A stretch of DNA of 40,762 nt from an uncultured Rhodothermales bacterium. GTDB taxonomy: Bacteria; Bacteroidota; Rhodothermia; Rhodothermales; CAZKDQ01. Of this stretch, positions 1,875-40,702 are shown piece by piece. Made by a program: the position numbers and the translations under genes. Location: contig CAZRTY010000003.1 in NCBI GenBank assembly GCA_964603055.1, positions 1 through 40,762 on the forward strand, in the 5' to 3' direction. How positions within the stretch are numbered: the first letter of the stretch is position 1; every line of letters starts with the position of its first letter. The notes under the pieces were generated by a model. That model was not told where the DNA came from, ran no database searches, and worked only from the letters and a program-made list of their open reading frames with translations.

Positions 1875-1956
1875 CTATGATGAGGGTGACGGAACGAGAA
1901 TCGATTCAGTAAACGCCAAGCGGTACACGAGGCGCTACACCGCCGGACAGTTCGCC

Positions 1957-3057
1957 TCAGCGTTGTGCAATGGGTGTGCCGAAACGCATGCTCGCGGCGA
2001 TCCGATGCGAAAAACCGAGCTCCGAGGGAATGCCTGCGAAATCGCCGAAGCCATAGTCAATGGAAATCCGATCGAGGATGAGCCCTGCGCCTACGGTGGG
2101 TACGATATCAGCGCCGCCGCGCCCATCCGTGGCAAGCCGGTTAATGCCGGCTCTGAGGGCAACCAGATTTCGGTAGACGTATTCGGCACCAAGCCGCGGG
2201 TGGAACGACACCTCGCCCATATTGGCGGCATAGGTTTTCTGCCCATCGAAGGCAAGATCAACGTCGGCGGCAACGGTCACGGCGTGCATCCCCATCGGGA
2301 TTGAATAGCCGGCGCCTAGTCTCATAAGTGGGAGTACCAGCTCGGTACCGCCCTCCGGCATTACTTCGCCGAAGTCTTCCTCGATCGGACGGAGCGCATC
2401 CTGATTCACGCTCCACGTCTGAAGCATCGTCGATGCGTCTTGCAGGGTGGCTCCGGCCGTGAATCCGCCCATCGTGTACTGCACGGCGACGTCGAAGCTA
2501 TATCCCCACGCCGAGGCAAAGTGGCCGATGTTTCGGCGGATAACCTTCGCCGTAACTCCGGCCGACAACGCATCATTGACGCGGCGGCCGTAGCTGAAGA
2601 AGAACGCATAGTCGGCAGCGGAGAACGTCGTGATGTGCGATCCGGGGTCCGACTTGGGGCGGTCGCGCTCGGAATCCCACGCGTCGAGCGTGTTTTTGAT
2701 GTCGTTGACGCCGCTGCGGAAGAAGGAAATCCCAACGGCTGAGCGATCGTTGAGCGGAAAAACGCCACCTGCGTAATCGAACGATACAATCCCCGCGAAC
2801 CGCTCGGCGTGCATGTAGCCGACTTCCGAGTGGGTGATCCGCGCGAGCCCCGCCGGATTCCAGTAGCCCGCACTTACGTCTTGCGCGAGGCCGACGTGAG
2901 CGCCGCCCATGCCAAGAGCTCGCCCGCCTACACCGCCCGCAAGGAACTCGGCGCCATAACGGACGACCGTCTGGGCACTAACAGGGGCAACGCTAAAGAG
3001 AAACAGAACCAGAGCGAGCGACAACCCGGCGATTCGAGCGCGATTACGACTCATCAA
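1957..3057 (-). CDS. PorV/PorQ-family (FadL-like) outer-membrane beta-barrel, T9SS-associated family
   Basis: 366 aa. Signal peptide MMSRNRARIAGLSLALVLFLFSVAPVSAQ. GGRALGMGGAHVGLAQDVSAGYWNPAGLA is the typical PorV/PorQ N-terminal motif. The rest shows an alternating beta-strand pattern and ends in an aromatic-rich C-terminus. Confidence 0.6.
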   Translation of the reverse strand: MMSRNRARIAGLSLALVLFLFSVAPVSAQTVVRYGAEFLAGGVGGRALGMGGAHVGLAQDVSAGYWNPAGLARITHSEVGYMHAERFAGIVSFDYAGGVFPLNDRSAVGISFFRSGVNDIKNTLDAWDSERDRPKSDPGSHITTFSAADYAFFFSYGRRVNDALSAGVTAKVIRRNIGHFASAWGYSFDVAVQYTMGGFTAGATLQDASTMLQTWSVNQDALRPIEEDFGEVMPEGGTELVLPLMRLGAGYSIPMGMHAVTVAADVDLAFDGQKTYAANMGEVSFHPRLGAEYVYRNLVALRAGINRLATDGRGGADIVPTVGAGLILDRISIDYGFGDFAGIPSELGFSHRIAASMRFGTPIAQR

Positions 3058-4564: not shown

Positions 4565-5988
4565 TAATACCGGGGATTGCGTATTCGATGTGATACTTCT
4601 TTGGCCGCAGCACTGGCGGCGAGCGTCAAGACGTCTCGAGCCGGCGAAACGGGCGGATTGTAGACGAGATCCAGATTCATGAGATCAAACACGGTGCCGC
4701 GCTGCCTGAGGATTGGCACCAGGACGTTGACTCGCATTGCGGCACCGTCGTTGCCGACGATCTCACCGCCGAGCAGGCGGCCCGTCCGGTGCTCGGCGAC
4801 CAGGCGAACATGGATCTCGGCCGATTCCGGCGCTGACGAACCGCGCGAGACATGCTTCACGACGACGTCGAAGCAATCAAAGCCTGCATCTCTTGCCTCT
4901 TGCATACGGAGGCCCACTGCCGCCACTTCGAGGCCGAAGACTTTCACTGCCGATGCCACGACCACGCCGGGAAATCGCTCGGGCGTGCCACGGCCTTTCC
5001 GAGCGGCGTTACGGGCGGCAACGCGGGCCGTCCGAAAAGCAACCGGTGATAAGGGCAGGTTGATTTTCGCGCCATCGATCATGCGCGTCACTTCGCAAAC
5101 ATCACCGCAGGCCCAGACATTCGGCAGGTTCGTCCGCATACCCTCATCACACGCAACAGCGCCTGTTTTTCCGAGCCGCACTCCGGCGGCAGATGCCAGA
5201 TCCGTATTCGGAACGATGCCGGTGCAGAGCAGCACGAGATCGCAGTAGATCAATTCACCACGATCGGTGCGGACAGCCTTGAGCTTTTCGTGCCGATCTG
5301 TCTCAATCGCCGTTGCCGCCTCAAAGCGCAGCGCGACGCCATGCTCGCGGAATCGGGTATGGATGATCGGCCGCAGCGCATCGTCAATGTGGCGGTTCAT
5401 CAACCCACCTGCCGGCTCGACGATGGACACGCGGATACCTCGCCGCCGCAGTGCCTCCGCCATCTCAAGGCCGATATAGCCTCCTCCAAGAATAACGGCG
5501 TGCTTGACCTCCTCTCGATCGAGCCTCGATCGCAATTGGATGAGGTCATCGAGCCGCCTGACGGGATAGACGCCCTCGGCGCCGACACCCGGCATCTCGG
5601 GGATTCTCACGCGCGCGCCCGTTGCAAGGATGAACTTGTCGAATCGCTCATGGGATACCTCCCCATCCGTGAGCCGCCGGACCACGAGGCGATTTCGGTC
5701 CGGCAAGATCGCTTCTACACGGTGCCGGGTTTTCACGGTGACACCCTTCGCTCGCTCGAATTCTGCGGGATCGAAAACGATTAGATCATCATGATTCGCC
5801 ATCCCTCCCGCAGCAAAATGCGGCATCTCGCAGGCACTGTACGAGATGTGCTCGCCTTGCTCAAAAAGCACGACATCGGCATTCGGATCTACGCGTGCAG
5901 CTTCGGCTGCCGCTGCCGGCCCCGCCGCAACCCCGCCGATAATGGCAATCCGCTGTTGCTGCATACGCGATTTAACTGTCGATGACAC
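4564..5988 (-). CDS. FAD-dependent pyridine nucleotide-disulfide oxidoreductase (CoA-disulfide reductase / NADH oxidase family)
   Basis: 474 aa. FAD dinucleotide fold IAIIGGVAAGPAAAAEAAR, single redox Cys in SYSACEMPHF, second Rossmann ILGGGYIGLEMAEAL, and the ACGDVCE motif. Confidence 0.75.
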   Translation of the reverse strand: MSSTVKSRMQQQRIAIIGGVAAGPAAAAEAARVDPNADVVLFEQGEHISYSACEMPHFAAGGMANHDDLIVFDPAEFERAKGVTVKTRHRVEAILPDRNRLVVRRLTDGEVSHERFDKFILATGARVRIPEMPGVGAEGVYPVRRLDDLIQLRSRLDREEVKHAVILGGGYIGLEMAEALRRRGIRVSIVEPAGGLMNRHIDDALRPIIHTRFREHGVALRFEAATAIETDRHEKLKAVRTDRGELIYCDLVLLCTGIVPNTDLASAAGVRLGKTGAVACDEGMRTNLPNVWACGDVCEVTRMIDGAKINLPLSPVAFRTARVAARNAARKGRGTPERFPGVVVASAVKVFGLEVAAVGLRMQEARDAGFDCFDVVVKHVSRGSSAPESAEIHVRLVAEHRTGRLLGGEIVGNDGAAMRVNVLVPILRQRGTVFDLMNLDLVYNPPVSPARDVLTLAASAAAKEVSHRIRNPRY

Positions 5989-5994
5989 GATCTG

Positions 5995-6945
5995 CTACTC
6001 GGGCCGAAGTGCCGTTAAAGGATCATCAGGCTCGACGTGACCGCGTGGATGAGCCTTGTCGTGTGCAGCCGGCTCAAGGTGGGCGGTTACGACGACATCG
6101 TCCTCGGGGAAAACGCGGTCCAGCTCCTCCTCCACATCGTGCGACGCCGAGTGCGCTGCCGCCAGCTTCACATCCCCCTCAAACAAAAGATGGTATTCGA
6201 TCCATCGCTGACTACCCGTCTGACGATGACGTACCTGGTGATACCCGGCTACTGCCCCTTGATCCACGGCGGCGTCGAGAACGGAAAGAATGGCGAGCGT
6301 GTCTTCATCGTCGCTCTTTTCCATCAGCCCCTCAAACGACTGTCTGATCAACTGATAGGCTGTGAGCAAAATGTTTAGCGCCACGCCAATTGCCACGAGA
6401 GGGTCGAGCCAAACGATGTCGGTAATGATCACCAGGCCAACGCCCACCATCACCCCGATACTCGTCCACATATCCGTCAGCACATGACGCCCGTTCGCGA
6501 CCAGCGCAAGGTTGTTGTACCGCCTGCCGCTGCGTATCAAATAGAGGCCGAGCGCCAGGTTGACGAGCGTCAGCGTTACGAGCACGCCGAGTCCCAGACC
6601 CAACTGCTGCAGCTCGGGACCACGGATGAGGTCATCGATGGCCGAGTAGATGATCACGCCGGCCGCCAGCATGATCAGTCCGCCTTCAAAGCCCGCCGAG
6701 AAATACGACGCCTTGCCATGGCCGTATGGATGGTCGGCATCGGCGGGTTTTAGCGAGTACCACACACTGATCGCGACGATGACCGTCGCCAGGATGTGGA
6801 CGATTGATTCGGCGGCATCCGAGAAAATGGCCGCGCTGCCAGTCAGCACGTAAGCCGAGACCTTTCCCGCAAGCATCAGGACGCTGACGAGCACGCTCAC
6901 CAGTATCGGCTTGAAACGTGGATCGGTCAGACGGGCGTCGGGCAT
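5995..6945 (-). CDS. Cation diffusion facilitator (CDF) family divalent-metal efflux transporter
   Basis: 316 aa with six predicted TM helices. Metal-site motifs SDAAESIVH (TM2) and HVLTDMWTSIG (TM5), a C-terminal cytoplasmic domain and a His-rich tail (AAHDKAHPRGH). Confidence 0.85.
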   Translation of the reverse strand: MPDARLTDPRFKPILVSVLVSVLMLAGKVSAYVLTGSAAIFSDAAESIVHILATVIVAISVWYSLKPADADHPYGHGKASYFSAGFEGGLIMLAAGVIIYSAIDDLIRGPELQQLGLGLGVLVTLTLVNLALGLYLIRSGRRYNNLALVANGRHVLTDMWTSIGVMVGVGLVIITDIVWLDPLVAIGVALNILLTAYQLIRQSFEGLMEKSDDEDTLAILSVLDAAVDQGAVAGYHQVRHRQTGSQRWIEYHLLFEGDVKLAAAHSASHDVEEELDRVFPEDDVVVTAHLEPAAHDKAHPRGHVEPDDPLTALRPE

Positions 6946-7020
6946 TCAGATGAAAATGAGGCTGGTGGCGAGAGCTATTCCGATGCGTCCCCGCTGCCGG
7001 GCCGAATCAGGCGCAATTTA

Positions 7021-8928
7021 ATGAACACTTGCGACATCGGGGACGTTCGAGCCAGCGTTCATTCGATGTTCGAGACGATGACCGACGAGCTACGCGAGAA
7101 GCTTAATAACCTCCCGACGCGGCCGGGAGTCTACCAGCACAAGGATTCAGAAGGCAACGTTCTTTACGTCGGCAAGGCCAAGAACTTGCGATCGCGGGTA
7201 CGCTCGTATTTCCAGGAGGCCAGACCCGCGGATGGCCGGCTCCGGATCATGATCCGGAAGATTAACGACACCGAGGTCATCGTTACCGATACCGAGGCCG
7301 AGGCCCTCATCCTCGAGAACAACCTCATCAAGAAGCTCAAGCCGCGCTACAACATCAACCTGCGCGACGACAAGAGCTACCCGTTCATCTGCATCAAGAA
7401 CGAACGTTTCCCCCGCGTCTTCCCGACGCGCCGCGTGCGCAAAGACGGATCGAAGTACTTCGGCCCCTACACCGACGTCAAGAACATGCGGCTGATGCTG
7501 CGCACCATCCGTTCCATCTTTATGCTGCGCACGTGCAACCTCAACCTGACGCAGTCGGCCATCGATGCGGGCAAGTATCAGCCTTGCCTCGAGTATCACA
7601 TCAAGAAATGTGCGGCGCCGTGCGTGGGCCTGCAGCCGGAGGAGGACTATAATCAGACGATCATGCAGATCGAGAAGCTGCTGAATGGCCACACGAAGGA
7701 ATTGATCGGCTTGCTGCGCGATGAGATGAAACGCCTCGCCTCGGAGATGAAGTTCGAGGAGGCAGCATCGCTTCGGGATCGGATCGCCGCGCTCGAGAAA
7801 TACTCCGCCCGCCAGCGCATCGTCAGCCAGGATTTCGAAGATCGCGATGTCTTCGCCCTCGCCGTCGACCGCGAGGAAAGCGTAGCCTGCGGTGTCTTAT
7901 TCAAAGTGCGCGAAGGCACCGTCATCGGCCGGCAGCACAAGTACATCCGTCGCATCGAGGGGCTGACGGATGAATCGCTGCTGCAGTCGCTCCTCGAGTC
8001 GTACTACACCGAGACCACGTTCTTCCCCGAAGAAGTCCTGCTGTCGCACAACATCCCCGAGCCCGAACCGCTTGAAGAAGTCCTTCGCCGCGGGCGCGGC
8101 AAGAAAGTAGCCGTCCGCATGCCACAGCGAGGCGACAAAGCCGGGCTCGTGCGCATGGTCGAAACCAACGCCAACCTGCTTCTCGACGAGTGGAAACTCC
8201 AGAAAGAGAAGCGGGGCGAGGATCGCATTCCGTTCGCGGTCAAGAAGCTGCACAAAGATTTGCGGCTCGACGACCTGCCCCGCCGGATGGAATGCTTCGA
8301 CATCTCGCACCTCTCCGGCACCGGCACCGTCGCATCCTGCGTCGTCTTCCAAGATGGCAAGCCGCGAAAGAGCGATTATCGCCATTACAAGATTCGCTCG
8401 GCCGAGGGCAAGCCCGACGACTATCTCTCCATGCGCGAGGTCATTGCGCGCCGCTACAAACGAATCCTTGCCGACGACGGCCCGTGGCCGGACCTCGTCG
8501 TTATCGACGGCGGCAAAGGTCAGCTCTCGAGCGCCGTCGAAGCGCTCCAGGAGGTCGGCGCCTACGGCCGTTTCCCTGTCATCGGCCTCGCCAAGCGCCT
8601 CGAGGAGGTCTTCTTCCCGGGCGACTCCGAATCGATGCTCATCGCCAAAGACTCGGCATCACTCCAGCTCCTGCAACGCCTCCGCAACGAAGCCCACCGC
8701 TTCGCCATCTCGTTCCAGCGCACACAACGCACGAAGCGAACCATCCGGACCGAGCTCACCGAGATCCCCGGCATCGGCCCAAAAGTATCGGCACGGCTCA
8801 TCGGCACATTCGGCTCGGTAAAGCAAGTCCGCGAGGCCTCCGAAGAACAGCTCTCGGCTGTCGTCGGACCCGCACGCGCACGGGCCGTCAAAACCTACTT
8901 CGAGGAGCAGGTCGAAAATCCAGCGTAG
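7021..8928 (+). CDS. uvrC: Excinuclease ABC subunit C
   Basis: 635 aa as tracked. GIY-YIG domain (PGVYQHKDSEGNVLYVGKAKNLRSRVRSY...KPRYN), UVR domain (FEEAASLRDRIAALE), RNase-H-like endonuclease domain and C-terminal (HhH)2 (LTEIPGIGPKVSARLIGTFGS). The start is uncertain; in-frame ATGs at 7066 and 7078 are equally plausible. Confidence 0.95.
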   Translation: MNTCDIGDVRASVHSMFETMTDELREKLNNLPTRPGVYQHKDSEGNVLYVGKAKNLRSRVRSYFQEARPADGRLRIMIRKINDTEVIVTDTEAEALILENNLIKKLKPRYNINLRDDKSYPFICIKNERFPRVFPTRRVRKDGSKYFGPYTDVKNMRLMLRTIRSIFMLRTCNLNLTQSAIDAGKYQPCLEYHIKKCAAPCVGLQPEEDYNQTIMQIEKLLNGHTKELIGLLRDEMKRLASEMKFEEAASLRDRIAALEKYSARQRIVSQDFEDRDVFALAVDREESVACGVLFKVREGTVIGRQHKYIRRIEGLTDESLLQSLLESYYTETTFFPEEVLLSHNIPEPEPLEEVLRRGRGKKVAVRMPQRGDKAGLVRMVETNANLLLDEWKLQKEKRGEDRIPFAVKKLHKDLRLDDLPRRMECFDISHLSGTGTVASCVVFQDGKPRKSDYRHYKIRSAEGKPDDYLSMREVIARRYKRILADDGPWPDLVVIDGGKGQLSSAVEALQEVGAYGRFPVIGLAKRLEEVFFPGDSESMLIAKDSASLQLLQRLRNEAHRFAISFQRTQRTKRTIRTELTEIPGIGPKVSARLIGTFGSVKQVREASEEQLSAVVGPARARAVKTYFEEQVENPA

Positions 8929-11712: not shown

Positions 11713-13008
11713 TCATCGAGCCGAGATGCCGGTCACGGTCAGCAATCGGTCAGTTCCAACGCTGATGTCGTCGTAGTAAATGAACGCCTGGTAGGTGTTC
11801 TGCGGACGCGGAGCCGACTCATTGAGCGCCCGATTAAGCCGCGCATCACGAGACCAGTATCGGTATTCATACGCGCCCTGCTTCACGAGCCCATTGCCTT
11901 CGTAGCGGCGCTGCTCCGCGTTCCAGGACAGCTTGAAGTTATCCGTAGGCGTCCATGCGTTGAACGCGCCGATTACGTAAACATCGCCCATATACGGCAC
12001 CTCATTTCCGGGCACCAGCGCGAACTGAACGTCGACGTATTCCGATTGCAGGGCCGGCACGGCTCGATCCCGGACGGCCGACTGCACCACGGGCTGGCCG
12101 TATTGCAGCGGCGCGAGGCCCGTCCCACCGAAGTGAGCATAATCCGGAGAGAGCGTTACCCGAAACGGCGACGCGCCATAATCGATGTCCTCGATCTGCT
12201 GGCCCACTTGCAATACACCTAAGTCGAGAAAATAATCGGCACCTTCGGCTCTGAACGCGGCATCTGGCGGAAGATAAAACCGGAGCATCGGCGCCTCGAT
12301 CAGCGACGGCCGGGTTGCGCAGCGGCCCTCGGAGAAACGACCGTTACGCACAAAGCACGTGGAAAAGTCGAGAGGGCTCGCCCCTTCGCCACGCTCCGGC
12401 CGGAAGAGCAACGTAGGCTGGACGCCGGAGAATCCAGAGCCCGCCATCAGCACGTTTTCAGCCGTCATTTCGGCTGCAACCGATTGCTCAGTGATGAAGA
12501 ACGGCAACTCAAATAGAACGTCGTCTTCCATCCCCTGCTCGGCCACGCGTAAAATGTAATTGCCACTGACTCGAAACGTGATCGACTCGTTAGGGAAGCG
12601 ATAGACGAAGTGCTGGTAGCGGACTTCGGTCGCTTCGGATGGCCGGTAGTCGAGAAGTTGGTCTCGGTGGAACGTGGACAGGTACTCGCCGGGCGAAAGA
12701 TCTCGGCGCCACTCGCGATCGGCGTGGTAGAAAAAGACGGACAGCGGGCGGCCCGCATCGGCAAGCAGATCGAATCGAAGCGTGAGCTGATCGCCAGAAC
12801 CAAGCGTCATAATCGGAAGCCGGCCCTCCCCCTCGCCCGGATACAACTGCGGCGTCGCAATCTGGGGCGACAGTTCAGCCAACTGCGGCACACCGATGAC
12901 CGACACCTCGTCCAGACGATCCGGAGGACGCACCCGTTCGTCTCGATCCTCAGTCGACGCACATGCGCTTGCAAGCACGAGTATGACGATCAAGAGCAAG
13001 CGATGCAT
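11713..13008 (-). CDS. DUF5103-type lipoprotein (T9SS plug-protein-like) with a C-terminal CBM48-like domain
   Basis: 431 aa. Lipoprotein signal MHRLLLIVILVLASAC. LPIMTLGSGDQLTLRFDLL...SVFFYHADREWRRDLSPGEYL...FRVSGNYILRV resembles the DUF5103 first domain. The C-terminus reads YVIGAFNAWTP...GAYEYRYW. Confidence 0.6.
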   Translation of the reverse strand: MHRLLLIVILVLASACASTEDRDERVRPPDRLDEVSVIGVPQLAELSPQIATPQLYPGEGEGRLPIMTLGSGDQLTLRFDLLADAGRPLSVFFYHADREWRRDLSPGEYLSTFHRDQLLDYRPSEATEVRYQHFVYRFPNESITFRVSGNYILRVAEQGMEDDVLFELPFFITEQSVAAEMTAENVLMAGSGFSGVQPTLLFRPERGEGASPLDFSTCFVRNGRFSEGRCATRPSLIEAPMLRFYLPPDAAFRAEGADYFLDLGVLQVGQQIEDIDYGASPFRVTLSPDYAHFGGTGLAPLQYGQPVVQSAVRDRAVPALQSEYVDVQFALVPGNEVPYMGDVYVIGAFNAWTPTDNFKLSWNAEQRRYEGNGLVKQGAYEYRYWSRDARLNRALNESAPRPQNTYQAFIYYDDISVGTDRLLTVTGISAR

Positions 13009-13070: not shown

Positions 13071-15260
13071 TCAATCCGGCGCGGCATCCTCAGGTTTCCG
13101 GTTCGCTGCCCGCCACGTCAGCATGTCTGCAACATACTCGTTGTAGCGGAGCGCATCGATGGCACCGCGTCGTTTCTCCAGTTCGATCAGTGCGTGCACC
13201 ACGGCGCGGGCCCGCTCGAGATCTTCTGTCCGGCGCGCGATGGAAAGCTCGACCTGCAACGCATAACGCTGGAGAAGCGGCTCGGTGAATTCGCTTCGAG
13301 CCGGTAACCAGGCATCCGCCTTCATGAAATTGCCGCGGCTCAATGCGGCGTTCGACATGGTGAGCGAGTCTGCAAAATTTGTCGCGCGCATCGAAGAAGC
13401 ACCGTGCCGATCGTAGGCGACCTCGACAAACCCCGAGAGGTCGGATGATCTCCGGCGTAGCAGGATGGACGTCCGCAAACCATCCACATAGGAAGGCATC
13501 TGCCCATACACGGCGCCATATCTGGCGCGAGCTTCCTCGGTGCCGCCGGACAGTCCGTACACATCCGCCTTCAGCATCTCGAACGACGCGCCCGCATCCA
13601 GCGAGTCAATCCCATCAACAAGTCGACGAGCCTCCTCGGCGCGTCCTTCCGCCAACAGCAATTGAAGCGCGAGCCGAAGTGAGGGCAGGTAGTCGCCTCG
13701 CTCATCAAGCGATTCTCGGATATGATCCAGCGCGCGCTCCCAGTCATCCTGCTCAAGCGCTTCCCAGGCTTCGTAATACGAGCGGCGGTACGGCGCTACG
13801 TAGTGCGGACATCGCCGTTCGAACAACGATGGAGCTGAGAATCGTGTGAACGACGCCTGGCCGGCTGCCGCCGAGACAACCTGCCGCTGTTCAAGCCGGC
13901 CACGCCACTCCTCCACCAGTTCATCGAGCGATTTCCCATACGCCTTCGCGAAACGGCCGGAGCGATACACCTCTTTCAGCGGATCAGCACCGTACGCGTC
14001 GAGCAAATATCCCACAAAAGAACCAGACGACGAGTAGGCGACGGCGCCCCTGCCCGTCCAGAAGCCGAGTGGCGAGAGACGATCGGCAATGGCATCCAGG
14101 CGGTGCTGCGCATCGGGTCCACTTCGGGTGAGCGATGCCAGCACGAGGTCGTCATGAGACGGCCCACCTGACGGCGCTTCCAACGCGACAGCCAGCCCCT
14201 CGATCAAGGCAACCGCTGGCGAAGCGTTGATGATCGGTAGCCCGAACTCGCGCGATACTATGTGTACGAGCTCGTGCGTGATCGTCCGCGGAGAATCGCT
14301 GACCAACACATGCATTTGTGGCCGGCGCAGCCATACCGGCGTGACGCTGGTGAACCGACTGCCCGTTAAGCGGCCACGTACGAAGGGATTCGGATACAGA
14401 TAAACATGAATGCGCCGGTCAACCTCAATATCAAGTACGTCTTGTAAGTGGGCGTAGTGGTACTCGAGTTCATCGGTGACAAACTGTACTCGACGCTGCG
14501 AATGCTCATCCGACGTGTGGTGGATGACGAAGCCTGCAGTTACCGTGCGCTTGTCGAGCTGCTGTTCGAGATGCCCGTAGGTTGTGTTGATGCCAAGGGC
14601 GGCGGCATTCAAGTAGATGAGGCCCATCCCGAGCGCCGTACTCAGGATGGCTATCGAACGTTTGAACGACGGCCGCCGATCGGTAAGCGACGCGGCGGCA
14701 AGCAAACACAACACTGACCACCCGAGCGTCAACAACCGGAACCAGCCGTAGCTAGGCCGCCACCGGATGTCCTCCTCATAGATGGGCCCGAGGACACCGC
14801 CGAAAACATGGTTGTGGGTGAAGAATTGTGGATGCAGGCCGAGATCGTACATCACCCCACCGATCATGACCGCGAGTCCGGTCAGGATAAACACCGCGCG
14901 TTTACGACTGACCGATGACGCCGCGATTAAAGCCGCGAGCGATGCACCCAGGACGACCGACGGAACCGCGAAGACGAGGAAGTAGGCAAAACCTGTAGCG
15001 TAAGCACAATTAGGCGCCCAGACGAGCGACAGGCTGAGCATTGCGAGCGGCACAGCGAGAAGCACCACCTGCCTGCCGATCGCGAGGAACGGCGACGTGC
15101 CTCTTTGCAGCGGCTTCAGCTCGAGGAGGCCGGCGAGGAAGAATCCACTTGCCGCGATGACTGCGGCCGATTCCACGTGGAGGATTTGCAGCACGGGCCA
15201 TGGCCAGAGCCCGAGGCAGATGATGCCGTAAACAAGTGCGCCGCGCCAGAGATCGCGCAT
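13071..15260 (-). CDS. Polytopic membrane protein fused to an MA-clan (HExxH...E) metallopeptidase-like domain and TPR-like helical repeats
   Basis: 729 aa. Residues 1..~225 contain about 6-7 hydrophobic helices. HELVH is at nt 14262..14276, with EGLA 21 residues later (gluzincin / Peptidase_MA_2-like pattern). The C-terminal ~330 aa are helical-repeat rich (ALDHIRESLDERGDYLPSLRLALQLLLAEGRAEEARRL...). Confidence 0.6.
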   Translation of the reverse strand: MRDLWRGALVYGIICLGLWPWPVLQILHVESAAVIAASGFFLAGLLELKPLQRGTSPFLAIGRQVVLLAVPLAMLSLSLVWAPNCAYATGFAYFLVFAVPSVVLGASLAALIAASSVSRKRAVFILTGLAVMIGGVMYDLGLHPQFFTHNHVFGGVLGPIYEEDIRWRPSYGWFRLLTLGWSVLCLLAAASLTDRRPSFKRSIAILSTALGMGLIYLNAAALGINTTYGHLEQQLDKRTVTAGFVIHHTSDEHSQRRVQFVTDELEYHYAHLQDVLDIEVDRRIHVYLYPNPFVRGRLTGSRFTSVTPVWLRRPQMHVLVSDSPRTITHELVHIVSREFGLPIINASPAVALIEGLAVALEAPSGGPSHDDLVLASLTRSGPDAQHRLDAIADRLSPLGFWTGRGAVAYSSSGSFVGYLLDAYGADPLKEVYRSGRFAKAYGKSLDELVEEWRGRLEQRQVVSAAAGQASFTRFSAPSLFERRCPHYVAPYRRSYYEAWEALEQDDWERALDHIRESLDERGDYLPSLRLALQLLLAEGRAEEARRLVDGIDSLDAGASFEMLKADVYGLSGGTEEARARYGAVYGQMPSYVDGLRTSILLRRRSSDLSGFVEVAYDRHGASSMRATNFADSLTMSNAALSRGNFMKADAWLPARSEFTEPLLQRYALQVELSIARRTEDLERARAVVHALIELEKRRGAIDALRYNEYVADMLTWRAANRKPEDAAPD

Positions 15261-22425: not shown

Positions 22426-22652
22426 CGTACCAAATTCACTTTCTCCGGTTTGAGCCAGGAAATTCGGTGCCGAGACATGGTTTGCATAGAACATGCGGAT
22501 TATCTCTCCGTTACATAATTTAGACACATCGTGGTGAGGCTGTCGTTCAAGGGCGTGCGAGTTATTACGCCTACGTCAACGTCGGCTCGGCACGACCTCA
22601 CTACTGATGCATTGCAAGCCGGAGTAATCGTTTGAACGAATCGCCGCGGGAT

Positions 22653-24512
22653 ATGGAGTCGAAAACGGGTCGGGTTCAGGATGGAGAGAGCGAACAGCAC
22701 CCGGCACGCCGGAAGAAGCGTGTCGTGCTGGGCGGTCGACGGGCCACTGTGGCCTCGTTTGCCGCTATCGGCGTGATCGTTCTTGCGTTAGTTGCGCTTG
22801 GGCGGTTCGACTCCGTCGCCAACAACCTCCTCGACCGCTTTCGCGAGACGCCGGGACGCATTGCCGCAGTGGCAGAGGCGCCCGAAGTTCTTGAGATGGA
22901 GGACATCTCACTTGTATTCGCTGAGATGGATATCCACCCGGACGTCCTTTTCAGCCCGTACCTCGATGGCGCCATTCTCGCTAACGGCGAAGAAGACGTT
23001 CAGAGACGGATGATCGGCCAGTTCCGCGAACTGCTCGATATGTACGTCCAGCGCCAGGGCGTCGACGACAACTTCACCATCCGTGTACTCGACGGTCGAA
23101 CCAACGAAACGCTGGAAGTCGCCGAACTCACGGCGCAGCGGATGGAATACCAGACAACAGGGTCCGTCAACTGGGGCGCCGTCGATAACATCCGGCGATC
23201 GGAGACGAACCGACTCGTCTCGAAGTGGCAGGGTCGCGGCATTCCGCGCGGCAGCGTGGTGGTGCGCTGGGGCCGTGCCGACCAGATCCGCGAGGCGCGC
23301 GAACGTAACGCGCCATTCATCGAGCATGAGCTCAACCTGGCTCGTCGACTTGGCTTGAGCCTCCTCGCCACGCAAATCCCGACCGTCGAGACATTCAACC
23401 AGGACCGGCTGATCTCGTCGGTTGGCGCGCGCAGTCGCTATCAGATGATGCCGTATCTGCTGCGGCAGAACGGCATCCACCACTACACGCTGCGCACGGC
23501 ATCAGGCAGCAGTGTTCAGGTGTTCGAGGAGTGGCATCCGCTGCTGACGCTCGAGCCGGCGTTCGCCACGCTGAAGGGCTATATCAACGCGGTGGGGCAT
23601 GAGATCCCTGGTGTTTCTGCGTATCACACGGGGCCCGGCAACATCTTCATGGTTTACCGCACGTTCCTCGACAATATCCGTAGCGTGTCGAGTTCGACCA
23701 GTGTGGCAGACGCCTACCTGTGGGCCGTAACCGAAGGGTTCGACACGGTCTCGCAAGGCACGTCGTTCAAGACGTACTCGCGGGGCTACGTGCCGTCAAA
23801 CTATGGCGCGTTGAAGGCAACCGAGGACACGCCGATCGATACGCTGCAGACGTTCCTTGCGGAGCGGGTCGTGTTGCAGTCGGGCGCGAGCATTTATCTG
23901 AGCGAGGTTATCGATCTGCTCGAGAACGATGCCACGTTCATGGCCACGAACCGGAGGATAGCCTCAACGCGAGACCTCCCCTCCCGCCTTTACAATCAGA
24001 TTCGTGATCTGAACCCGCACATCCAGCTTCCAGCCTTCGAGGAGACAGGGTTGCCCCCTGGCGGCGACGTCCGCTTTACCGCGACGTCGGATAACGTTCC
24101 GGTACGCTTCTTCTTACCCATCGGCGCGATGGATGCGCTTGAACGGAACGGTCGCGATATCGTCAACCGTACGGAATCGTTCGTCTACGACCGTAATGCG
24201 CTGGGCACGCCCGCACCTGAGGAGGTGACGATGTATGACCGGCAATATGAGGCGCTTGTACACGATGTAGCCAACTTCGGCTTCACCAACGAAAACCGAG
24301 CACGGCTTATCCGGCTCCGCGACCGGTTCCGGACAATGGCTGAAAACAATCCGTCGCACTACCGGCAGATCCAGTATCACGTCATCCGGACGCACGCACA
24401 GATCTGGCAGTCGCGGCCGTTTGATCGACTGGCCGCTGCGGTATCGGACAATGATGGCCTCCGCCGGATTGAAGGTCAGCCGCCGCAGATGCTGGGCAGC
24501 AATATGCAGTAG
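22653..24512 (+). CDS. Membrane-anchored protein with a lytic-transglycosylase (SLT/GH23-like) domain and long unassigned flanks
   Basis: The tracked ORF starts at TTG 22632; ATG 22653 (MESKTG...) is more likely. TM anchor VASFAAIGVIVLALVALG. SLT signature VETFNQDRLISSVGARSRYQMMP (nt 23388..23453; catalytic Glu, S..GA...Q.MP), and a second motif SAYHTGPGNI (equivalent to AYNAGPGxV). Confidence 0.7.
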   Translation: MESKTGRVQDGESEQHPARRKKRVVLGGRRATVASFAAIGVIVLALVALGRFDSVANNLLDRFRETPGRIAAVAEAPEVLEMEDISLVFAEMDIHPDVLFSPYLDGAILANGEEDVQRRMIGQFRELLDMYVQRQGVDDNFTIRVLDGRTNETLEVAELTAQRMEYQTTGSVNWGAVDNIRRSETNRLVSKWQGRGIPRGSVVVRWGRADQIREARERNAPFIEHELNLARRLGLSLLATQIPTVETFNQDRLISSVGARSRYQMMPYLLRQNGIHHYTLRTASGSSVQVFEEWHPLLTLEPAFATLKGYINAVGHEIPGVSAYHTGPGNIFMVYRTFLDNIRSVSSSTSVADAYLWAVTEGFDTVSQGTSFKTYSRGYVPSNYGALKATEDTPIDTLQTFLAERVVLQSGASIYLSEVIDLLENDATFMATNRRIASTRDLPSRLYNQIRDLNPHIQLPAFEETGLPPGGDVRFTATSDNVPVRFFLPIGAMDALERNGRDIVNRTESFVYDRNALGTPAPEEVTMYDRQYEALVHDVANFGFTNENRARLIRLRDRFRTMAENNPSHYRQIQYHVIRTHAQIWQSRPFDRLAAAVSDNDGLRRIEGQPPQMLGSNMQ

Positions 24513-30001: not shown

Positions 30002-30394
30002 TCAGCCTAATTCTCCGTCGACATTCCAGCGGCGGGCAAGATCCTGAATGAAGCTGATTTCACCGCCAACGATGATGCCATCGGCCGACGCAATATCGGC
30101 AAGATCGTTCAACACCCGCACGCGCCGGTTGCGCTCCATCGAATCGTACACAGATACGACTGCGGTGTCGAGCAATTCATCTCGATGCGGACTCATGTAC
30201 GCGAGCAGGACGTCGTTCATGACTCGTCTGATCTGTGATTGCTGAGCTTCCGGCTGCCAGTCGCTCAGTTTAACCGACATGGCCTCCATCTCCGACGGCT
30301 CGAGCTCGGCATCCGCACCGTGCGTGAGCGACAGGTAAATCAGGCCGAGATCATGAAGCGGCGTCCAATCCATTTTATTTTCGAGTTGTGTCAT
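30002..30394 (-). CDS. TerB-like (tellurite-resistance TerB / DjlA N-terminal fold) protein
   Basis: The tracked 300-aa ORF is an artefactual extension. A credible 130-aa protein starts at ATG 30394: MTQLENKMDWTPLHDLGLIYLSL...VLNDLADIASADGIIVGGEISFIQDLARRW (TerB-type ADG..E motif). Confidence 0.7.
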   Translation of the reverse strand: MTQLENKMDWTPLHDLGLIYLSLTHGADAELEPSEMEAMSVKLSDWQPEAQQSQIRRVMNDVLLAYMSPHRDELLDTAVVSVYDSMERNRRVRVLNDLADIASADGIIVGGEISFIQDLARRWNVDGELG

Positions 30395-30411
30395 GATATC
30401 ATGTAAAGGTG

Positions 30412-31104
30412 CTACACCAGGCTCCGACCGCCATCGACGCGGATAGTTGTGCCGGTCACGTAAGGATTCGTCATCGCGAAAATCACGGCCGACGCCGCGT
30501 CTTCGGGCCTCCCGATGCGCTGAACCGGCAGCGTGCTGGTCAGGCGCTGTGCCAGTTCTTCGCTGACGCCACGGGAGTCGATATAACCTGGCGCCACGGC
30601 GTTCACCCGAATGGGTTTGAGTTCGACGGCGAGCGAGCGAACCAGCGCCTCGATCGCGCCGTTCATCGCAGCGACCACGCTCAGGCCGGGCACCGGCATC
30701 TGCGCAGCGACGCCTGACAGTAGCGTGATCGAACCATCCTCGGGCAGTACCGGAGCGGCCGACTGGACGGCTGAAAAAGCGCCCCAGAACTTGACCTTGA
30801 ACATCTTCTGAGCGTCGGCCAGTACGGTATCGATAAATGGCGCGGATGTATGGTCGGACGCGGTGAACACGAGGTGATGGAACGGCGCGATGCCCTCGAT
30901 GCAATATGCGAGTGCGCGTTCGTCGCGGACGTCTATCGCACAGGTCTCGACCGATCCCAGACGCTGCGCGGCCTCCCGCAGATTGTCTTCGCTCTGGCTC
31001 AGGATCGCAACGTCCGCGCCGTGCTCGAGCGCGAGCCTGGCCGTGGCTTCTCCGATTCCGGAAGAGCCTCCGATCACAACCACTTTTTTCGTCGAAAGCA
31101 ACAT
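30412..31104 (-). CDS. Short-chain dehydrogenase/reductase (SDR) fold protein, apparently atypical active site
   Basis: The tracked 339-aa ORF is over-extended. The 230-aa protein starts at ATG 31104: MLLSTKKVVVIGGSSGIGEATARLAL (Rossmann), then ITLLSGVAA and a C-terminal PYVTGTTIRVDGG. The Y-x3-K position reads VAAMN by my manual alignment. Confidence 0.8.
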   Translation of the reverse strand: MLLSTKKVVVIGGSSGIGEATARLALEHGADVAILSQSEDNLREAAQRLGSVETCAIDVRDERALAYCIEGIAPFHHLVFTASDHTSAPFIDTVLADAQKMFKVKFWGAFSAVQSAAPVLPEDGSITLLSGVAAQMPVPGLSVVAAMNGAIEALVRSLAVELKPIRVNAVAPGYIDSRGVSEELAQRLTSTLPVQRIGRPEDAASAVIFAMTNPYVTGTTIRVDGGRSLV

Positions 31105-31213
31105 GGCAGAGGCTAGGCGCGCATTCAGCGAGACCGCGTCGTCAGGAACGCCCGCCATACGGCATCGTATTGGCGGCGGCCCTAATAAAAATGAACCGCC
31201 CCACTTTACCCAC

Positions 31214-32314
31214 GTGCGGCACGCCGAAGTTACATACAGGCTGACGAGTGTCGACGCGTCGGATATCGACGACCTCGCCTCCGATCTTCTCCTCGAGCAG
31301 ACGTTCGAAACCCCGCAGGAAGTCGTCAACAAATATGTGGGACTGGCGGAGCGCGCAGGTGAGGTCCATGACATCCGGCCTGCAGCAAACGGCGCCGTTG
31401 ACGTCACCCTCCATCTCCCGGATGACGACATCCAGGATGTTGCTCAGTTCGTCAACCGTATTTTCGGGAACGTCTCCATCCATCCCAATATTCGGCTGAT
31501 CGACTTCATCCCATCGTCGGGTCTGGCCCGACGCTTCGAGGGTCCGAGGTTAGGTGCGGAAGGAATCAGGGAGGCATTTGGTTTTCCTCCTCGTCCGCTA
31601 ACCTGCACCGCGCTCAAGCCCGTGGGGTTATCCGCGGATCAGCTTGCCGAGCTCTGTCGGACGTTTGCCGAGAGCGGGATCGACATCATCAAGGATGATC
31701 ATTACTTGAGTGACCAGCCCACGGCACCGTTTAAGGAACGCATAAAGCGCTGTGCCGACGTTGCGGCGGACGTATCCGCGCGGCAAGGGCGCCCGATCTG
31801 GTACGTTCCGAGCGTTTCGGGATCGCCGGATGAGGTGAGGCGCCGGTGCGAGGCAGCTGAGGATGCCGGGCTTAGGGCGGTTATGCTCGCCCCAATGACG
31901 ACGGGCCTTCCCGTCCTGCACAGTGTTCGCCGGGATACCGACCTCGCCATCCTGACGCATCCCTCCTTCTCGCCGGTGGCATCGATCGCGCCGAAGGTTC
32001 TGTGGTCGACGCTCTTCCGCATGCTCGGCGCCGATGCCGTTATTTTCGTCAACGCTGGCGGTCGATTCGATTATTCGGTCGAGGAATGCCGCACGGTTGC
32101 CGCCACGATGATGGCGCCTGTATTCGACTTGAAGGCCTCGCTGCCCGTCCCAGCTGGGGGCATCGCGCTCGATGACGTGCCTCATACGATTCAGCGGTAC
32201 GGAAACGACTGCGCGCTGCTCGTTGGCGGCAGTCTCTTGAAGCAAAAGGATCTGGGCGCGGCAACCCGCCGCTTCGTGGAAGCCGTTGCCAAAAACGCAT
32301 TACTGGCTGAGTGA
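31214..32314 (+). CDS. RuBisCO-like protein (form IV RLP), not a carboxylase
   Basis: The tracked ORF (from 30890) is an over-extension across the divergent SDR gene. The likely start is GTG 31214 (MRHAEVTYRLTS...LLLEQTFETP, like the N-termini of YkrW-type RLPs), giving 366 aa. Landmarks: TALKPVGLS, GIDIIKDDH, THPSF, VNAGGRF, PVPAGGI, LLVGGSL. Confidence 0.8.
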   Translation: MRHAEVTYRLTSVDASDIDDLASDLLLEQTFETPQEVVNKYVGLAERAGEVHDIRPAANGAVDVTLHLPDDDIQDVAQFVNRIFGNVSIHPNIRLIDFIPSSGLARRFEGPRLGAEGIREAFGFPPRPLTCTALKPVGLSADQLAELCRTFAESGIDIIKDDHYLSDQPTAPFKERIKRCADVAADVSARQGRPIWYVPSVSGSPDEVRRRCEAAEDAGLRAVMLAPMTTGLPVLHSVRRDTDLAILTHPSFSPVASIAPKVLWSTLFRMLGADAVIFVNAGGRFDYSVEECRTVAATMMAPVFDLKASLPVPAGGIALDDVPHTIQRYGNDCALLVGGSLLKQKDLGAATRRFVEAVAKNALLAE

Positions 32315-32805
32315 TGGACAAAGCAGAAAACGCCATTACGCGCGGCCAGATAATTTCGGGCGTGCGCAAGTTCGACAATACCGGAGGCGAGTATCGGTGG
32401 CATGACGTCGACCTGCTCCAGTACAAGCCAACGGGAACGCATTTTCGTGACATCACGCGGCAGGTGCTGTTCGGGGACGAGCATGGCCTGCCGACTCAAC
32501 TTCGCTACTTCGAGGTTGCGCCAGACGGACATTCAACGCTCGAACGGCATGAGCACGTCCACGCCGTTCTGATTTTGCGGGGCCGTGGAGAGGTGTTGCT
32601 CGGTGATCACGTTGAAGGCGTCGCTACCTTCGACACCGTCTATGTGGCGCCTCAGACGTGGCACCAGTTCCGCGCGAATCGCGGCGAAGCGCTCGGCTTT
32701 CTATGCCTCGTCCCGTGCGACCGCGACCGCCCGCAGCGGCCCGATGCCGACGACCTCGATCTGCTCCGCAAGAACCCTGACATTCGCGACTTCATCCGAA
32801 TCTAA
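32314..32805 (+). CDS. Single-domain cupin protein, translationally coupled to the RLP
   Basis: About 163 aa. The ATG at 32314 shares one nt with the RLP TGA (32312..32314); an alternative GTG lies at 32311. Cupin motifs: [25 protein letters not shown] and [14 protein letters not shown]. Confidence 0.75.
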
Positions 32806-32813
32806 ATTCATTC

Positions 32814-33644
32814 ATGACCGAATTACGTACTGAAATCGAAGAACTCACCTCATCCACCGACATCGATGAGGCACGCGGCCGGCGCGCCGTGTCTGCGCTA
32901 ATCGACGGCCTGAACGACGGCACCATCCGCGCCGCAAGCCGTGACGACGACGGCCGCTGGACGGCCCATGCCTGGGTGAAGCAAGGCATTTTGCTCGGAT
33001 TCAAACTCGGCCACCTGGAGTCGATGTCGGGCGATGCGCTTTCTTTCTTCGACAAAGATACCTATCCACTCAAGCCACTTTCGGTTGAGAGTCAGGTTCG
33101 TGTGGTGCCGGGAGGAAGCTCGATCCGCACGGGATCGTACCTCGCGCCGGGCGTCGTCTGCATGCCACCGATGTACGTAAACGTCGGTGCGTACGTCGAT
33201 TCCGGATCTATGGTCGACTCGCACGCACTCGTGGGAAGTTGCGCTCAGATCGGCAAAAACGTGCACCTTTCCGCTGCGGCTCAGGTCGGCGGCGTGCTCG
33301 AGCCCGTCGGCGCCGTGCCGGTTGTCATCGAAGACAACGTGTTCGTCGGTGGCGGCTGCGGGATTTATGAGGGATGGGTCGTGCGCCGCAATGCCGTTCT
33401 CGCTCCTGGTGTTGTGCTGACGGCCGCGACGCGTGTTTACGACGTCGTGAACGAGCGCATGATCGGCCGGAGTTCGGGCGGCGAACTCGAAATTCCTGAA
33501 GGTGCCGTGGTCGTACCCGGCACACGACGCCTCGATGGCGACTTCGCCGCCGAGCACGGACTCTCGCTCTACGCACCCGTCATCATCAAGTACCGCGACG
33601 AGAGTACGGATGCCGCGACGACGCTCGAATCAGCGCTACGCTGA
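32814..33644 (+). CDS. dapD: 2,3,4,5-tetrahydropyridine-2,6-dicarboxylate N-succinyltransferase
   Basis: 276 aa, colinear with E. coli Dap[53 protein letters not shown] (left-handed beta-helix hexapeptides) and [11 protein letters not shown]. Confidence 0.9.
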
Positions 33645-39670: not shown

Positions 39671-40702
39671 ATGGCCGAAGCTGTTACCACGCTTGAGGGG
39701 AAGGCCCCGCCCGTCGACACCGGCTCGAAGCCCTTGTCACTGAGTCAAATTCGTCGCCCCATCGAAGCCGAACTGAAGCACTTCGGACGCTACTTTCGCG
39801 GCTCGATGCGCTCGCGGGTGCTCCTGCTCGACCGCATCACCCAGTATGTGTTGCGTCAGAAGGGGAAGCAGATCCGGCCGATCCTCGTCCTGCTCTCCGC
39901 CAAGATGTGCGGCCAGATCAACGAGGCCAGCTACCGCGCCGCCGCACTCGTTGAACTCATGCACTCGGCCACGCTCGTCCATGACGACGTCGTCGATGAC
40001 GCCGACATGAGACGGGGCATGTTCTCGATCAACGCGCTCTGGAAGAACAAAGTGGCCGTCTTGCTTGGCGACTTTCTGTTGAGCCGAGGCTTACTCCTCT
40101 CCCTTGAGTATCAGGACTACAAACAACTGCACGCCCTTTCAGATGCCGTGCGGCGGATGAGCGAAGGCGAGCTGCTGCAGATCGAGAAGTCGCGCCACCT
40201 CGACATCGACGAGGAGACGTACTACCGCATTATCTCCGACAAGACGGCTTCACTAATCGCCGCGTGTACGACGTGCGGCGCGCTGAGCACGACGGAAGAT
40301 GAGGCCCTCATCGAGCGCATGCGATTGATGGGCGAGAAGCTCGGACTTGCGTTTCAGATCCGAGACGACCTCTTCGACTTCGGCGTTGCCGATGTAGGGA
40401 AGCCCATCGGAATCGACCTGCAGGAGAAGAAAATGACGCTGCCGCTCATTCACGCGTTGCGCGAAGCAGGTACTGCGGATCGCCGGCGCATCATGCGCAT
40501 CGTCCGCAAGAACAAGAAGAGCCGCTCCGACATCCGTGAGGTCGCCACATTTGTGGCCGAGTTCGGGGGAATCGAGTACGCCCGGGATCTGATGGTCCAG
40601 CATGCAGAGGAAGCGCGAGAACTGATCGCCGGATTCGAGCCGTCTGAATCGCGGGCGGCCATGCTCGCCCTCGTCGACTATACAGTTCAGCGCTCCAAGT
40701 AG
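39671..40702 (+). CDS. Long-chain polyprenyl diphosphate synthase (octaprenyl/IspB-like trans-IPPS)
   Basis: 343 aa. First Asp-rich motif LVHDDVVDDADMRRG and second FQIRDDLFDF. Confidence 0.9.
   Translation: MAEAVTTLEGKAPPVDTGSKPLSLSQIRRPIEAELKHFGRYFRGSMRSRVLLLDRITQYVLRQKGKQIRPILVLLSAKMCGQINEASYRAAALVELMHSATLVHDDVVDDADMRRGMFSINALWKNKVAVLLGDFLLSRGLLLSLEYQDYKQLHALSDAVRRMSEGELLQIEKSRHLDIDEETYYRIISDKTASLIAACTTCGALSTTEDEALIERMRLMGEKLGLAFQIRDDLFDFGVADVGKPIGIDLQEKKMTLPLIHALREAGTADRRRIMRIVRKNKKSRSDIREVATFVAEFGGIEYARDLMVQHAEEARELIAGFEPSESRAAMLALVDYTVQRSK

Follow-up and report, generated by a model that had tools for sequence, protein, structure and literature searches.

A RuBisCO-like protein and cupin gene pair, predicted to belong to the MTA-isoprenoid shunt, in a Rhodothermales-type bacterium

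The window analyzed here, a stretch of 40,762 nt of DNA from an uncultured Rhodothermales bacterium, contains a gene encoding a form IV RuBisCO-like protein (RLP) of the DeepYkr clade, followed on the same strand by a cupin gene. The RLP gene (31214..32314, plus strand) encodes a protein of 366 aa, predicted from its sequence to act as a 5-methylthio-ribulose-1-P (MTRu-1-P) 1,3-isomerase. It starts at a GTG codon (31214) and ends with a TGA stop codon (32312-32314). The longest possible open reading frame would begin at ATG 30890, adding 108 aa and overlapping the divergent SDR gene (see below) on the opposite strand. All RLP homologues in the family alignment begin at the M-x-x-x-E-V-T-Y position, and an independent gene call in our protein collection (entry P0001) is exactly 366 aa long and 100% identical to the window RLP. 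Two ORFs on the minus strand within this gene (31142..31483; 31628..32245) were considered artefacts of the high GC content.

The cupin gene (32314..32805, plus strand) is an orthologue of Rhodospirillum rubrum Rru_A2000, and its product is a putative 1-methylthio-xylulose-5-P methylsulfurylase. Its ATG (32314-32316) shares one nucleotide with the RLP stop codon in the sequence TGATG (32312..32316), giving a protein of 163 aa. An alternative in-frame GTG (32311) would give 164 aa and a 4-nt overlap (GTGA). The overlap makes it probable that the two genes are translationally coupled. A first-pass annotation of this DNA had described the same start, frame and stop/start overlap, and these were confirmed. 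The motifs it had quoted are likewise all present in the translations: ALKPVGLS, DIIKDDH, THPSF, NAGGRF, PVPAGGI and LLVGGSL in the RLP, and HEHVH...WHQF in the cupin.

Upstream, an intergenic region of 109 nt (31105..31213) separates the RLP gene from a divergent gene encoding an SDR without the canonical YxxxK motif (30412..31104, minus strand). This region presumably holds the promoters of both genes and the 5′ leader of the RLP gene. An Rfam scan of the entire window found neither a riboswitch nor any other RNA family, so there is no SAM riboswitch in the intergenic region. No match to a sigma-70-like consensus was found there, and the three terminator-like matches equal the expectation from shuffled sequence and all lie within genes; both scans are uninformative for such an organism. 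Downstream, dapD (tetrahydrodipicolinate N-succinyltransferase; 32814..33644, plus strand; NF008808, 306.9 bits with a cutoff of 204) starts 9 nt past the cupin stop codon; it also occupies this downstream position in the Rhodothermales loci L001, L004, L006 and L008. Judging from spacing alone, dapD probably shares a transcript with the RLP and cupin genes; it is outside the shunt chemistry discussed below.

The window also encodes MtnA, the S-methyl-5-thioribose-1-P isomerase (795..1874), which scores well above the curated cutoffs (TIGR00512, 428.7 bits with a cutoff of 279; NF004326, 451.8 bits with a cutoff of 271) and matches PF01008 with an E-value of 4e-86. The presence of mtnA, as proposed in the first-pass annotation, thus stands, with the correction that the gene is on the minus strand, ~29 kb from the RLP-cupin pair and unlinked to it; in none of 80 related loci does mtnA occur within 6 kb of the RLP gene. 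The scanned genes of the window include neither mtnP nor mtnN/mtnK, and none for O-acetylhomoserine sulfhydrylase or the MEP pathway.

The window RLP matches the Pfam RuBisCO_large domain (PF00016; 65.6 bits, cutoff 30.1, E-value 5.9e-18), as a CO2-fixing RuBisCO of form I, II or III would. However, its scores are far from those models: 116.8 bits against a cutoff of 497.45 for type III RuBisCO (TIGR03326) and 105.2 against 438 for a large-subunit subfamily (NF003252). The positions that a carboxylase needs have been replaced (the equivalents of K177, E204, R295, K334 and S379 are V, H, P, R and A, respectively), and the protein has 366 aa, against 430-490 aa in the matched RuBisCO structures. 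A carboxylase is refuted by these scores and by the replaced active site, leaving it a vanishingly small probability, in agreement with the earlier view of this protein as an RLP rather than a CO2-fixing enzyme.

Among known structures, the best match is an RLP from Rhodopseudomonas palustris (3QFW; 231 bits, E-value 1.9e-67), and all remaining RuBisCO and RLP structures score at most 110 bits. 3QFW is 100% identical to one R. palustris protein in our collection (P0121), while a second (P0163, assumed to be RPA2169) shares 40% identity with the window RLP (E-value 3e-73). In a protein search seeded with 3QFW, the best 120 matches were all closer Rhodopseudomonas-like clusters. In a neighbor-joining tree, the window RLP joins 31 family members together with the R. 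palustris proteins in one clade (99/100 bootstrap replicates), apart from the YkrW (2OEK, 4NAS), Photo (2QYG) and form III (2CWX) proteins. RLPs of the NonPhoto clade were compared by score only (85 bits for 3NWR; 70 bits for the OiaX model, with a cutoff of 700). The tie to characterized RLPs runs via R. palustris RLP1 rather than R. rubrum Rru_A1998, and identity to the characterized RLPs is only ~40-45%. On this sequence evidence, the window RLP is a member of the DeepYkr clade.

Another reading of the window RLP is a YkrW/MtnW-type 2,3-diketo-5-methylthiopentyl-1-P enolase of classical, oxygen-dependent methionine salvage. By score, the top NCBIfam match of the window RLP is indeed an enolase model (PRK09549), and mtnA is common to both pathways. 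Yet the 166.9 bits obtained with this model (NF007095) compare with a cutoff of 409, and the 113.8 bits obtained with TIGR03332 with one of 513.6; the window RLP scores under all NCBIfam cutoffs for RuBisCO, MtnW and OiaX. The same 99/100 node parts it from 2OEK and 4NAS, which carry a Lys where it has N86 and KDDE where it has KDDH, and its partner is a cupin of the Rru_A2000 type. Together, scores, tree, residues and cupin type refute an enolase on sequence grounds, and we regard it as very improbable.

Residue conservation agrees with the placement in the DeepYkr clade. In an alignment of 32 family members, 57 positions are near-invariant, and the window RLP retains all 57, including K135, K160, D161, D162, H163, H249, R284, A314, G315 and G316. 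K135, K160, D162, H163, H249-P250, R284 and A314 are invariant in 32/32 members, and the clade-specific residues H163, N86, R284 and A314 are all kept. In RuBisCO numbering, the clade signature consists of retained K175, K201 and D203 equivalents with E204 replaced by His, R295 by Pro, K334 by Arg and S379 by Ala. At the K177-equivalent, family members differ, carrying V, M, I or Q; the window RLP has V. The first-pass annotation had considered the His at the E204-equivalent a possible sign of new RLP chemistry. This is unsupported, since every one of the 32 family members compared has KDDH, the R. palustris RLP1 proteins among them, and R. palustris RLP1 is an MTRu-1-P 1,3-isomerase (PMC5893883).

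The cupin matches the general Cupin_2 domain with 38.6 bits (E-value 9e-10) and specific structures much more strongly: 3KGZ (3.8e-44), 3JZV, which is Rru_A2000 (1.2e-43), and 3IBM (3.6e-40). The first cupin from outside this family in the PDB search is TM1459, with an E-value of 2e-7. The alignment with 3JZV (152 bits) covers 136 aa at 54% identity, which bears out the proposed homology to the R. rubrum methylsulfurylase. The cupin retains ten residues that are shared by at least 63 of the 66 sequences in its family (E77, H79, H81, H83, H117, C131, R49, R64, Y37 and K38). H79, H81, H83 and H117 are predicted to form the His-rich metal site of the enzyme.

Relatives of the RLP occur in at least 583 species-representative genomes spread over many phyla, and gene order was counted in 80 related loci. 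In 62 of these, again from many phyla, the RLP gene is immediately followed by the cupin gene on the same strand; two of the 62 (L054 and L069) encode the RLP and cupin fused into a single ORF. One further locus has the cupin upstream, and 17 have no cupin beside the RLP, three of which end at the RLP gene. At least 23 of the 80 loci offer a cupin start codon with a 1-8 nt overlap with the RLP stop, and in 16 more the gap is at most 25 nt. Loci from Meiothermus and Nitrococcus are among the relatives (L024, L028 and L068); an RLP-cupin organization of this kind has been described for Meiothermus, Nitrococcus and Halorhodospira (PMC4958253). Clustering of neighbors across the 80 loci revealed no conserved partner besides the cupin, and the large neighbor clusters proved to be antisense ORFs of high-GC DNA. 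The SDR gene adjoins the RLP gene only in L001, L002 and L006; it is not beside it in the Rhodothermales loci L003, L004, L007 and L008, nor in any other phylum. Since its adjacency is limited to three close relatives, the SDR is not part of the module; it was rejected as a pathway member, and the earlier suggestion that this neighbor hints at new RLP chemistry is unsupported.

The MTA-isoprenoid shunt is an oxygen-independent form of methionine salvage, in which methylthioadenosine, a by-product of SAM, is turned into methanethiol and DXP, a precursor of isoprenoids. We predict, with a probability of about 85%, that the RLP-cupin pair is the signature gene pair of this shunt, based on homology, placement in the clade, conserved residues and gene order, and the gene fusions seen in other phyla. 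It is a further copy of an already known two-enzyme module, here in a Rhodothermales-type bacterium. The pairing of a DeepYkr RLP with a methylsulfurylase-type cupin had also been the primary reading of the first-pass annotation, and is supported by the tree, the cupin homology, the conserved adjacency and the overlap.

For substrates, products and the roles of single residues, the following scheme extrapolates from the orthologous enzymes of R. rubrum and R. palustris. MtnA (795..1874, minus strand) would convert methylthioribose-1-P into 5-methylthio-ribulose-1-P, the proposed substrate of the RLP. The conserved RLP site would be of the activated Lys/metal type, formed by K160, D162 and H163 with K135 and H249. 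Here, the carbonyl group would be shifted via a 1,3-proton transfer, resulting in 1-methylthio-xylulose-5-P and some 1-methylthio-ribulose-5-P. For the RLP enzymes of R. rubrum and R. palustris, the kcat is reportedly ~1.2-1.3 per second. Subsequently, the cupin, as a metal enzyme, may use a thiol (e.g. glutathione) to take off the methylthio group. The predicted products are 1-deoxy-xylulose-5-P (DXP), which would enter the MEP isoprenoid pathway, and a methylthio-thiol adduct. This adduct would then yield methanethiol, to be reused in methionine resynthesis. In R. palustris, the RLP and cupin steps have been demonstrated both in vivo and in vitro for RLP1 (RPA2169) and its cupin (RPA2170), whose identities to their R. 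rubrum counterparts are 53% and 56%, respectively (PMC5893883). These counterparts are Rru_A1998 and Rru_A2000 (PMC4958253).

The fold and type of chemistry could also be conserved with a different substrate: the Rhodothermales sub-branch might isomerize a ribulose-1-P with some other 5-substituent, or a related ketose phosphate, with the cupin cleaving a different thio-sugar and the SDR possibly taking part. The window RLP does sit on a distinct and fairly long Rhodothermales sub-branch of the tree, with 40-47% identity to other members, its family varies at the K177-equivalent, and the SDR without YxxxK is divergent from the RLP gene both here and at loci L001, L002 and L006. However, all 57 near-invariant RLP residues and every invariant cupin residue are kept, the SDR is absent from beside the RLP in the four other Rhodothermales loci named above and in all other phyla, and mtnA is present in the window. 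Moreover, for this RLP subgroup no in vivo function other than MTRu-1-P isomerization is known (PMC5893883). We therefore consider another substrate unlikely, and favor the shunt reaction on 5-methylthio-ribulose-1-P.

As an MTA-isoprenoid shunt module, the pair chiefly matters for annotation. Public records name these RLPs 'RuBisCO large subunit C-terminal-like domain-containing protein' or 'ribulose-bisphosphate carboxylase', and neither the RLP subgroup nor the cupin is covered by an NCBIfam model, so there is no curated cutoff confirming the assignment and carbon fixation could be inferred wrongly. Correct naming would instead give a Rhodothermales-type bacterium a predicted oxygen-independent, methanethiol-producing methionine-salvage route, and the module is very widespread, as the genome and locus counts above illustrate. 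A larger role can be imagined, in which this Rhodothermales lineage draws the DXP for its MEP pathway mainly from the pair, independently of dxs, and the pair is not just a side branch of methionine salvage. In Rhodothermus marinus, DXS is reportedly the one MEP enzyme that is lacking, and the shunt is described as only 'partially present' (PMC11730185); in a survey, a few dxs-less species carried both shunt enzymes (PMC10663253). If the genome is without dxs, the shunt would be a candidate for the missing first isoprenoid step noted in Rhodothermus, and only then would it gain this greater importance; we regard such a role as quite improbable.

The closest characterized counterparts of the window RLP are R. 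palustris RLP1 (RPA2169, with 3QFW from a related strain) and R. rubrum Rru_A1998, both DeepYkr 5-methylthio-ribulose-1-P 1,3-isomerases. All have lengths of 366-368 aa and genes immediately 5′ of a methylsulfurylase-type cupin, and the window RLP shares with the R. palustris proteins its clade (99/100) and invariant residues, including KDDH, HP, GGRF and PAGG. They differ in sequence (~40-45% identity), in host (a Rhodothermales-type bacterium versus purple non-sulfur alphaproteobacteria), in the K177-equivalent (Val in the window RLP, Gln in the R. palustris proteins) and in local neighbors, which in the window are a TerB-like protein, the SDR and dapD. The cupin resembles Rru_A2000 (3JZV) in its LERHxHxH...WHQF motifs, its invariant Cys131 and a gene position directly 3′ of the RLP; in contrast, it has an N-terminal extension of ~25 aa, poorly conserved in the family, and a start codon overlapping the stop of the RLP gene. 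With the YkrW/MtnW enolases (DK-MTP-1-P enolase; Geobacillus kaustophilus 2OEK and Bacillus subtilis 2ZVI), the window RLP has in common the form IV fold, the K175, K201 and D203 equivalents and a predicted step after MtnA in methionine salvage. However, at ~28-31% identity it belongs to a separate clade, whereas the YkrW proteins, with KDDE and a Lys at the position of N86, are not paired with an Rru_A2000-type cupin and operate in a pathway that needs O2.

The window most probably (at roughly 85%, on the homology, active-site and gene-context analyses) encodes the RLP isomerase and the methylsulfurylase-type cupin of the MTA-isoprenoid shunt. The RuBisCO-like protein (RLP; 366 aa, + strand) runs from a GTG at 31214 to a TGA at 32312-32314, and the co-oriented cupin (163 aa, + strand) from an ATG at 32314-32316 to 32805. 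As read from the sequence, the two codons have one base in common (TGATG); an alternative, in-frame cupin start (GTG 32311) would give a 4-nt overlap. GTG 31214 was taken as the RLP start because a longer ORF from 30890 would run into the oppositely oriented SDR gene, because the alignment places the start of all homologues at this position (M-x-x-x-E-V-T-Y), and because a separate gene call in the protein collection (P0001, 366 aa) is 100% identical. The first-pass annotation had described two co-oriented genes with a stop/start overlap; its coordinates are accurate, and every RLP and cupin motif that it quoted is found in the translations.

The RLP matches Pfam RuBisCO_large (E 5.9e-18) and misses every curated NCBIfam cutoff by far, including that of OiaX (70.4 bits, cutoff 700). 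A true carboxylase is ruled out on sequence grounds by the form III RuBisCO model (116.8 bits, cutoff 497) and by active-site replacements, and a YkrW enolase by the MtnW (113.8 bits, cutoff 513.6) and PRK09549 (166.9 bits, cutoff 409) models and by the tree. Among all solved structures, the best match is 3QFW, in a full-length alignment (231 bits, E 1.9e-67), followed at 74-110 bits by 2CWX (form III), 4NAS/2OEK/3FK4/2ZVI (YkrW-type), 3NWR (NonPhoto) and 1YKW/2QYG (Photo). 3QFW is 100% identical to the Rhodopseudomonas palustris database protein P0121, and a second R. palustris protein, P0163, shares 40% identity with the window RLP (E 3e-73). Since the RLP complement of R. palustris consists of just RLP1 (DeepYkr, RPA2169) and RLP2 (Photo, 2QYG) (PMC5893883), both proteins are taken as RLP1 orthologues. 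In a neighbor-joining tree of 267 shared columns, one clade (99/100 bootstrap) unites the window RLP with 31 members of its family and the RLP1 proteins of R. palustris and leaves YkrW, Photo and form III sequences outside, with NonPhoto RLPs set apart by score only. Structure scores and tree thus bear out a DeepYkr-type RLP.

Within this family, K175, K201, D203 and H294 are kept (K135, K160, D162 and H249), while E204, R295, K334 and S379 are always replaced, by His (H163), Pro, Arg (R284) and Ala (A314), respectively; in place of the Lys of the YkrW enolases 2OEK and 4NAS, the family has Asn (N86). All 32 members compared share these residues. The K177 equivalent varies (V, M, I or Q). The E204-to-His change had been offered as a hint of new chemistry. 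However, the His is invariant in the clade and thus one of its hallmarks, and R. palustris RLP1 was demonstrated in vivo and in vitro to be a 5-methylthio-ribulose-1-P 1,3-isomerase (kcat 1.3 per second; R. rubrum RLP, 1.2; PMC5893883), so that new chemistry is not supported. The main rival to a role in the shunt is that the same chemistry acts on another substrate in the Rhodothermales sub-branch, on which the window RLP sits with 58-44% identity to proteins from Rhodothermales MAGs; with no deviation at 57 near-invariant family positions, we hold this to be unlikely.

The cupin is also close to a known enzyme. Its best structural matches are 3KGZ, 3JZV and 3IBM (E 4e-44 to 4e-40), with the next-best cupin far off (E 2e-7). 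3JZV is recorded as 'uncharacterized protein Rru_A2000', which is the 1-methylthio-xylulose-5-P methylsulfurylase of R. rubrum (PMC4958253). The window cupin shares 54% identity with Rru_A2000 over 136 aa, close to the 56% of the functionally validated R. palustris cupin (PMC5893883), and retains all family-invariant residues (E77, H79, H81, H83, H117, C131, R49, R64, Y37 and K38), which upholds its proposed methylsulfurylase type.

Gene context ties the two proteins together. Scanning one genome per species returned at least 583 genomes with an RLP relative; the best 80 loci cover Rhodothermales, Balneolales, Burkholderiales, Alpha- and Gammaproteobacteria, Eremiobacterota, Chloroflexota, Meiothermus, Gemmatimonadota, Verrucomicrobiota, Actinomycetota and others. 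A cupin homologue immediately follows the RLP, in the same orientation, in 62 of these 80 loci, precedes it in one (L010), and is missing from 17, three of which stop at the RLP gene. At least 23 of the 80 allow a cupin start codon at a 1-8 nt overlap with the RLP stop, and 16 more have one within 25 nt. In two loci, RLP and cupin are encoded in a single frame uninterrupted by a stop: L054, from a single-cell genome of Fibrobacterota (5956..7563, +, 535-aa ORF), and L069, from a Chitinivibrionales MAG (about 1139..2725, +). These natural Rosetta-stone fusions argue separately that both proteins work together. The RLP-cupin adjacency is conserved in relatives. For R. palustris, Meiothermus, Nitrococcus mobilis and Halorhodospira, this RLP-cupin order had been described before by North et al. 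(PMC4958253), and the 80 loci include some from Meiothermus and Nitrococcus. In L036 (6001..7236), and near the RLP 3' end in L022 and L038, the cupin alignment is in a different frame and opens 15-120 nt upstream of the RLP stop, reflecting either long overlaps between the genes or frameshifts in the assembly. Neighbor clustering found no other neighbor conserved across the family in the 80 loci.

The divergent SDR gene (30412..31104, −, 230 aa), separated from the RLP by 109 nt, had been seen as a pointer to new RLP chemistry, but just three of the 80 loci (L001, L002 and L006) have it beside the RLP. Its best NCBIfam model is PRK07041 (223 bits, cutoff 257). It has a nucleotide-binding motif (GGSSGIG), and what we take by eye to be the classical YxxxK site reads LSVVAAMNGAIEAL, apparently without the catalytic Tyr and Lys. 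A TerB-like gene (30002..30472, −) upstream of the SDR keeps its position in L001-L008, as does dapD (32814..33644, +), after the cupin, in the Rhodothermales relatives L001, L004, L006 and L008, which reflects local Rhodothermales synteny. Given these positions, the 9 nt between cupin stop and dapD start, and the lack of a terminator-like site between them (simple promoter and terminator scans being uninformative here), the pair is inside a syntenic housekeeping block and probably co-transcribed with dapD. An Rfam search found no riboswitch or other element in the window.

By orthology with the described shunt (PMC5893883, PMC4958253, PMC6302742), MtnA would supply 5-methylthio-ribulose-1-P, which the RLP would convert to 1-methylthio-xylulose-5-P, with 1-methylthio-ribulose-5-P as minor product. 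The cupin, with a thiol co-substrate, would then remove the methylthio group, yielding DXP, which would feed the MEP pathway, and a methylthio adduct as a source of methanethiol for methionine resynthesis. The mtnA gene reported at 795..1874 is real (−; TIGR00512, 428.7 bits, cutoff 279); mtnA was within 6 kb of the RLP in 0/80 loci. No mtnP, mtnN/K or dxs was found in the window. ORFs without a Pfam match at E 1e-5 lie at 115..708 (−), 1957..3057 (−), 13071..15260 (−) and 22632..24512 (+); two of them flank mtnA, neither recognizable as mtnP, mtnK or mtnN. A polyprenyl synthetase gene (39671..40702, +; PF00348, E 6.6e-65) of isoprenoid metabolism lies 7 kb downstream, with no link to the pair seen. 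A T9SS plug-domain protein (11713..13008) is consistent with the Bacteroidota/Rhodothermota-type host suggested earlier.

Some relatives carry the RLP alone. No cupin was found within 5 kb of the DeepYkr-type RLP in the Rhodothermus and Rhodothermaceae loci L030, L005 and L007, and the Eremiobacterota loci L023, L053, L056 and L057 lack one as well. In the Rhodothermus-type loci, the solitary RLPs have unrelated neighbors: genes for a NuoN-like antiporter subunit and for an M24 peptidase in L030 (RLP at 5914..7119), and DUF4349 and 5'-nucleotidase genes in L005 (RLP at 5959..7077). They fit Rhodothermus marinus, which reportedly has all of the MEP pathway except DXS, and the shunt no more than 'partially' (PMC11730185). 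In a survey, a few dxs-less species turned out to carry both shunt enzymes (PMC10663253). Should the window's host lack dxs, its complete pair would become a candidate for the supply of DXP, a scenario to which we give very little weight. The pair is a further case of an already characterized, widely distributed two-gene module.
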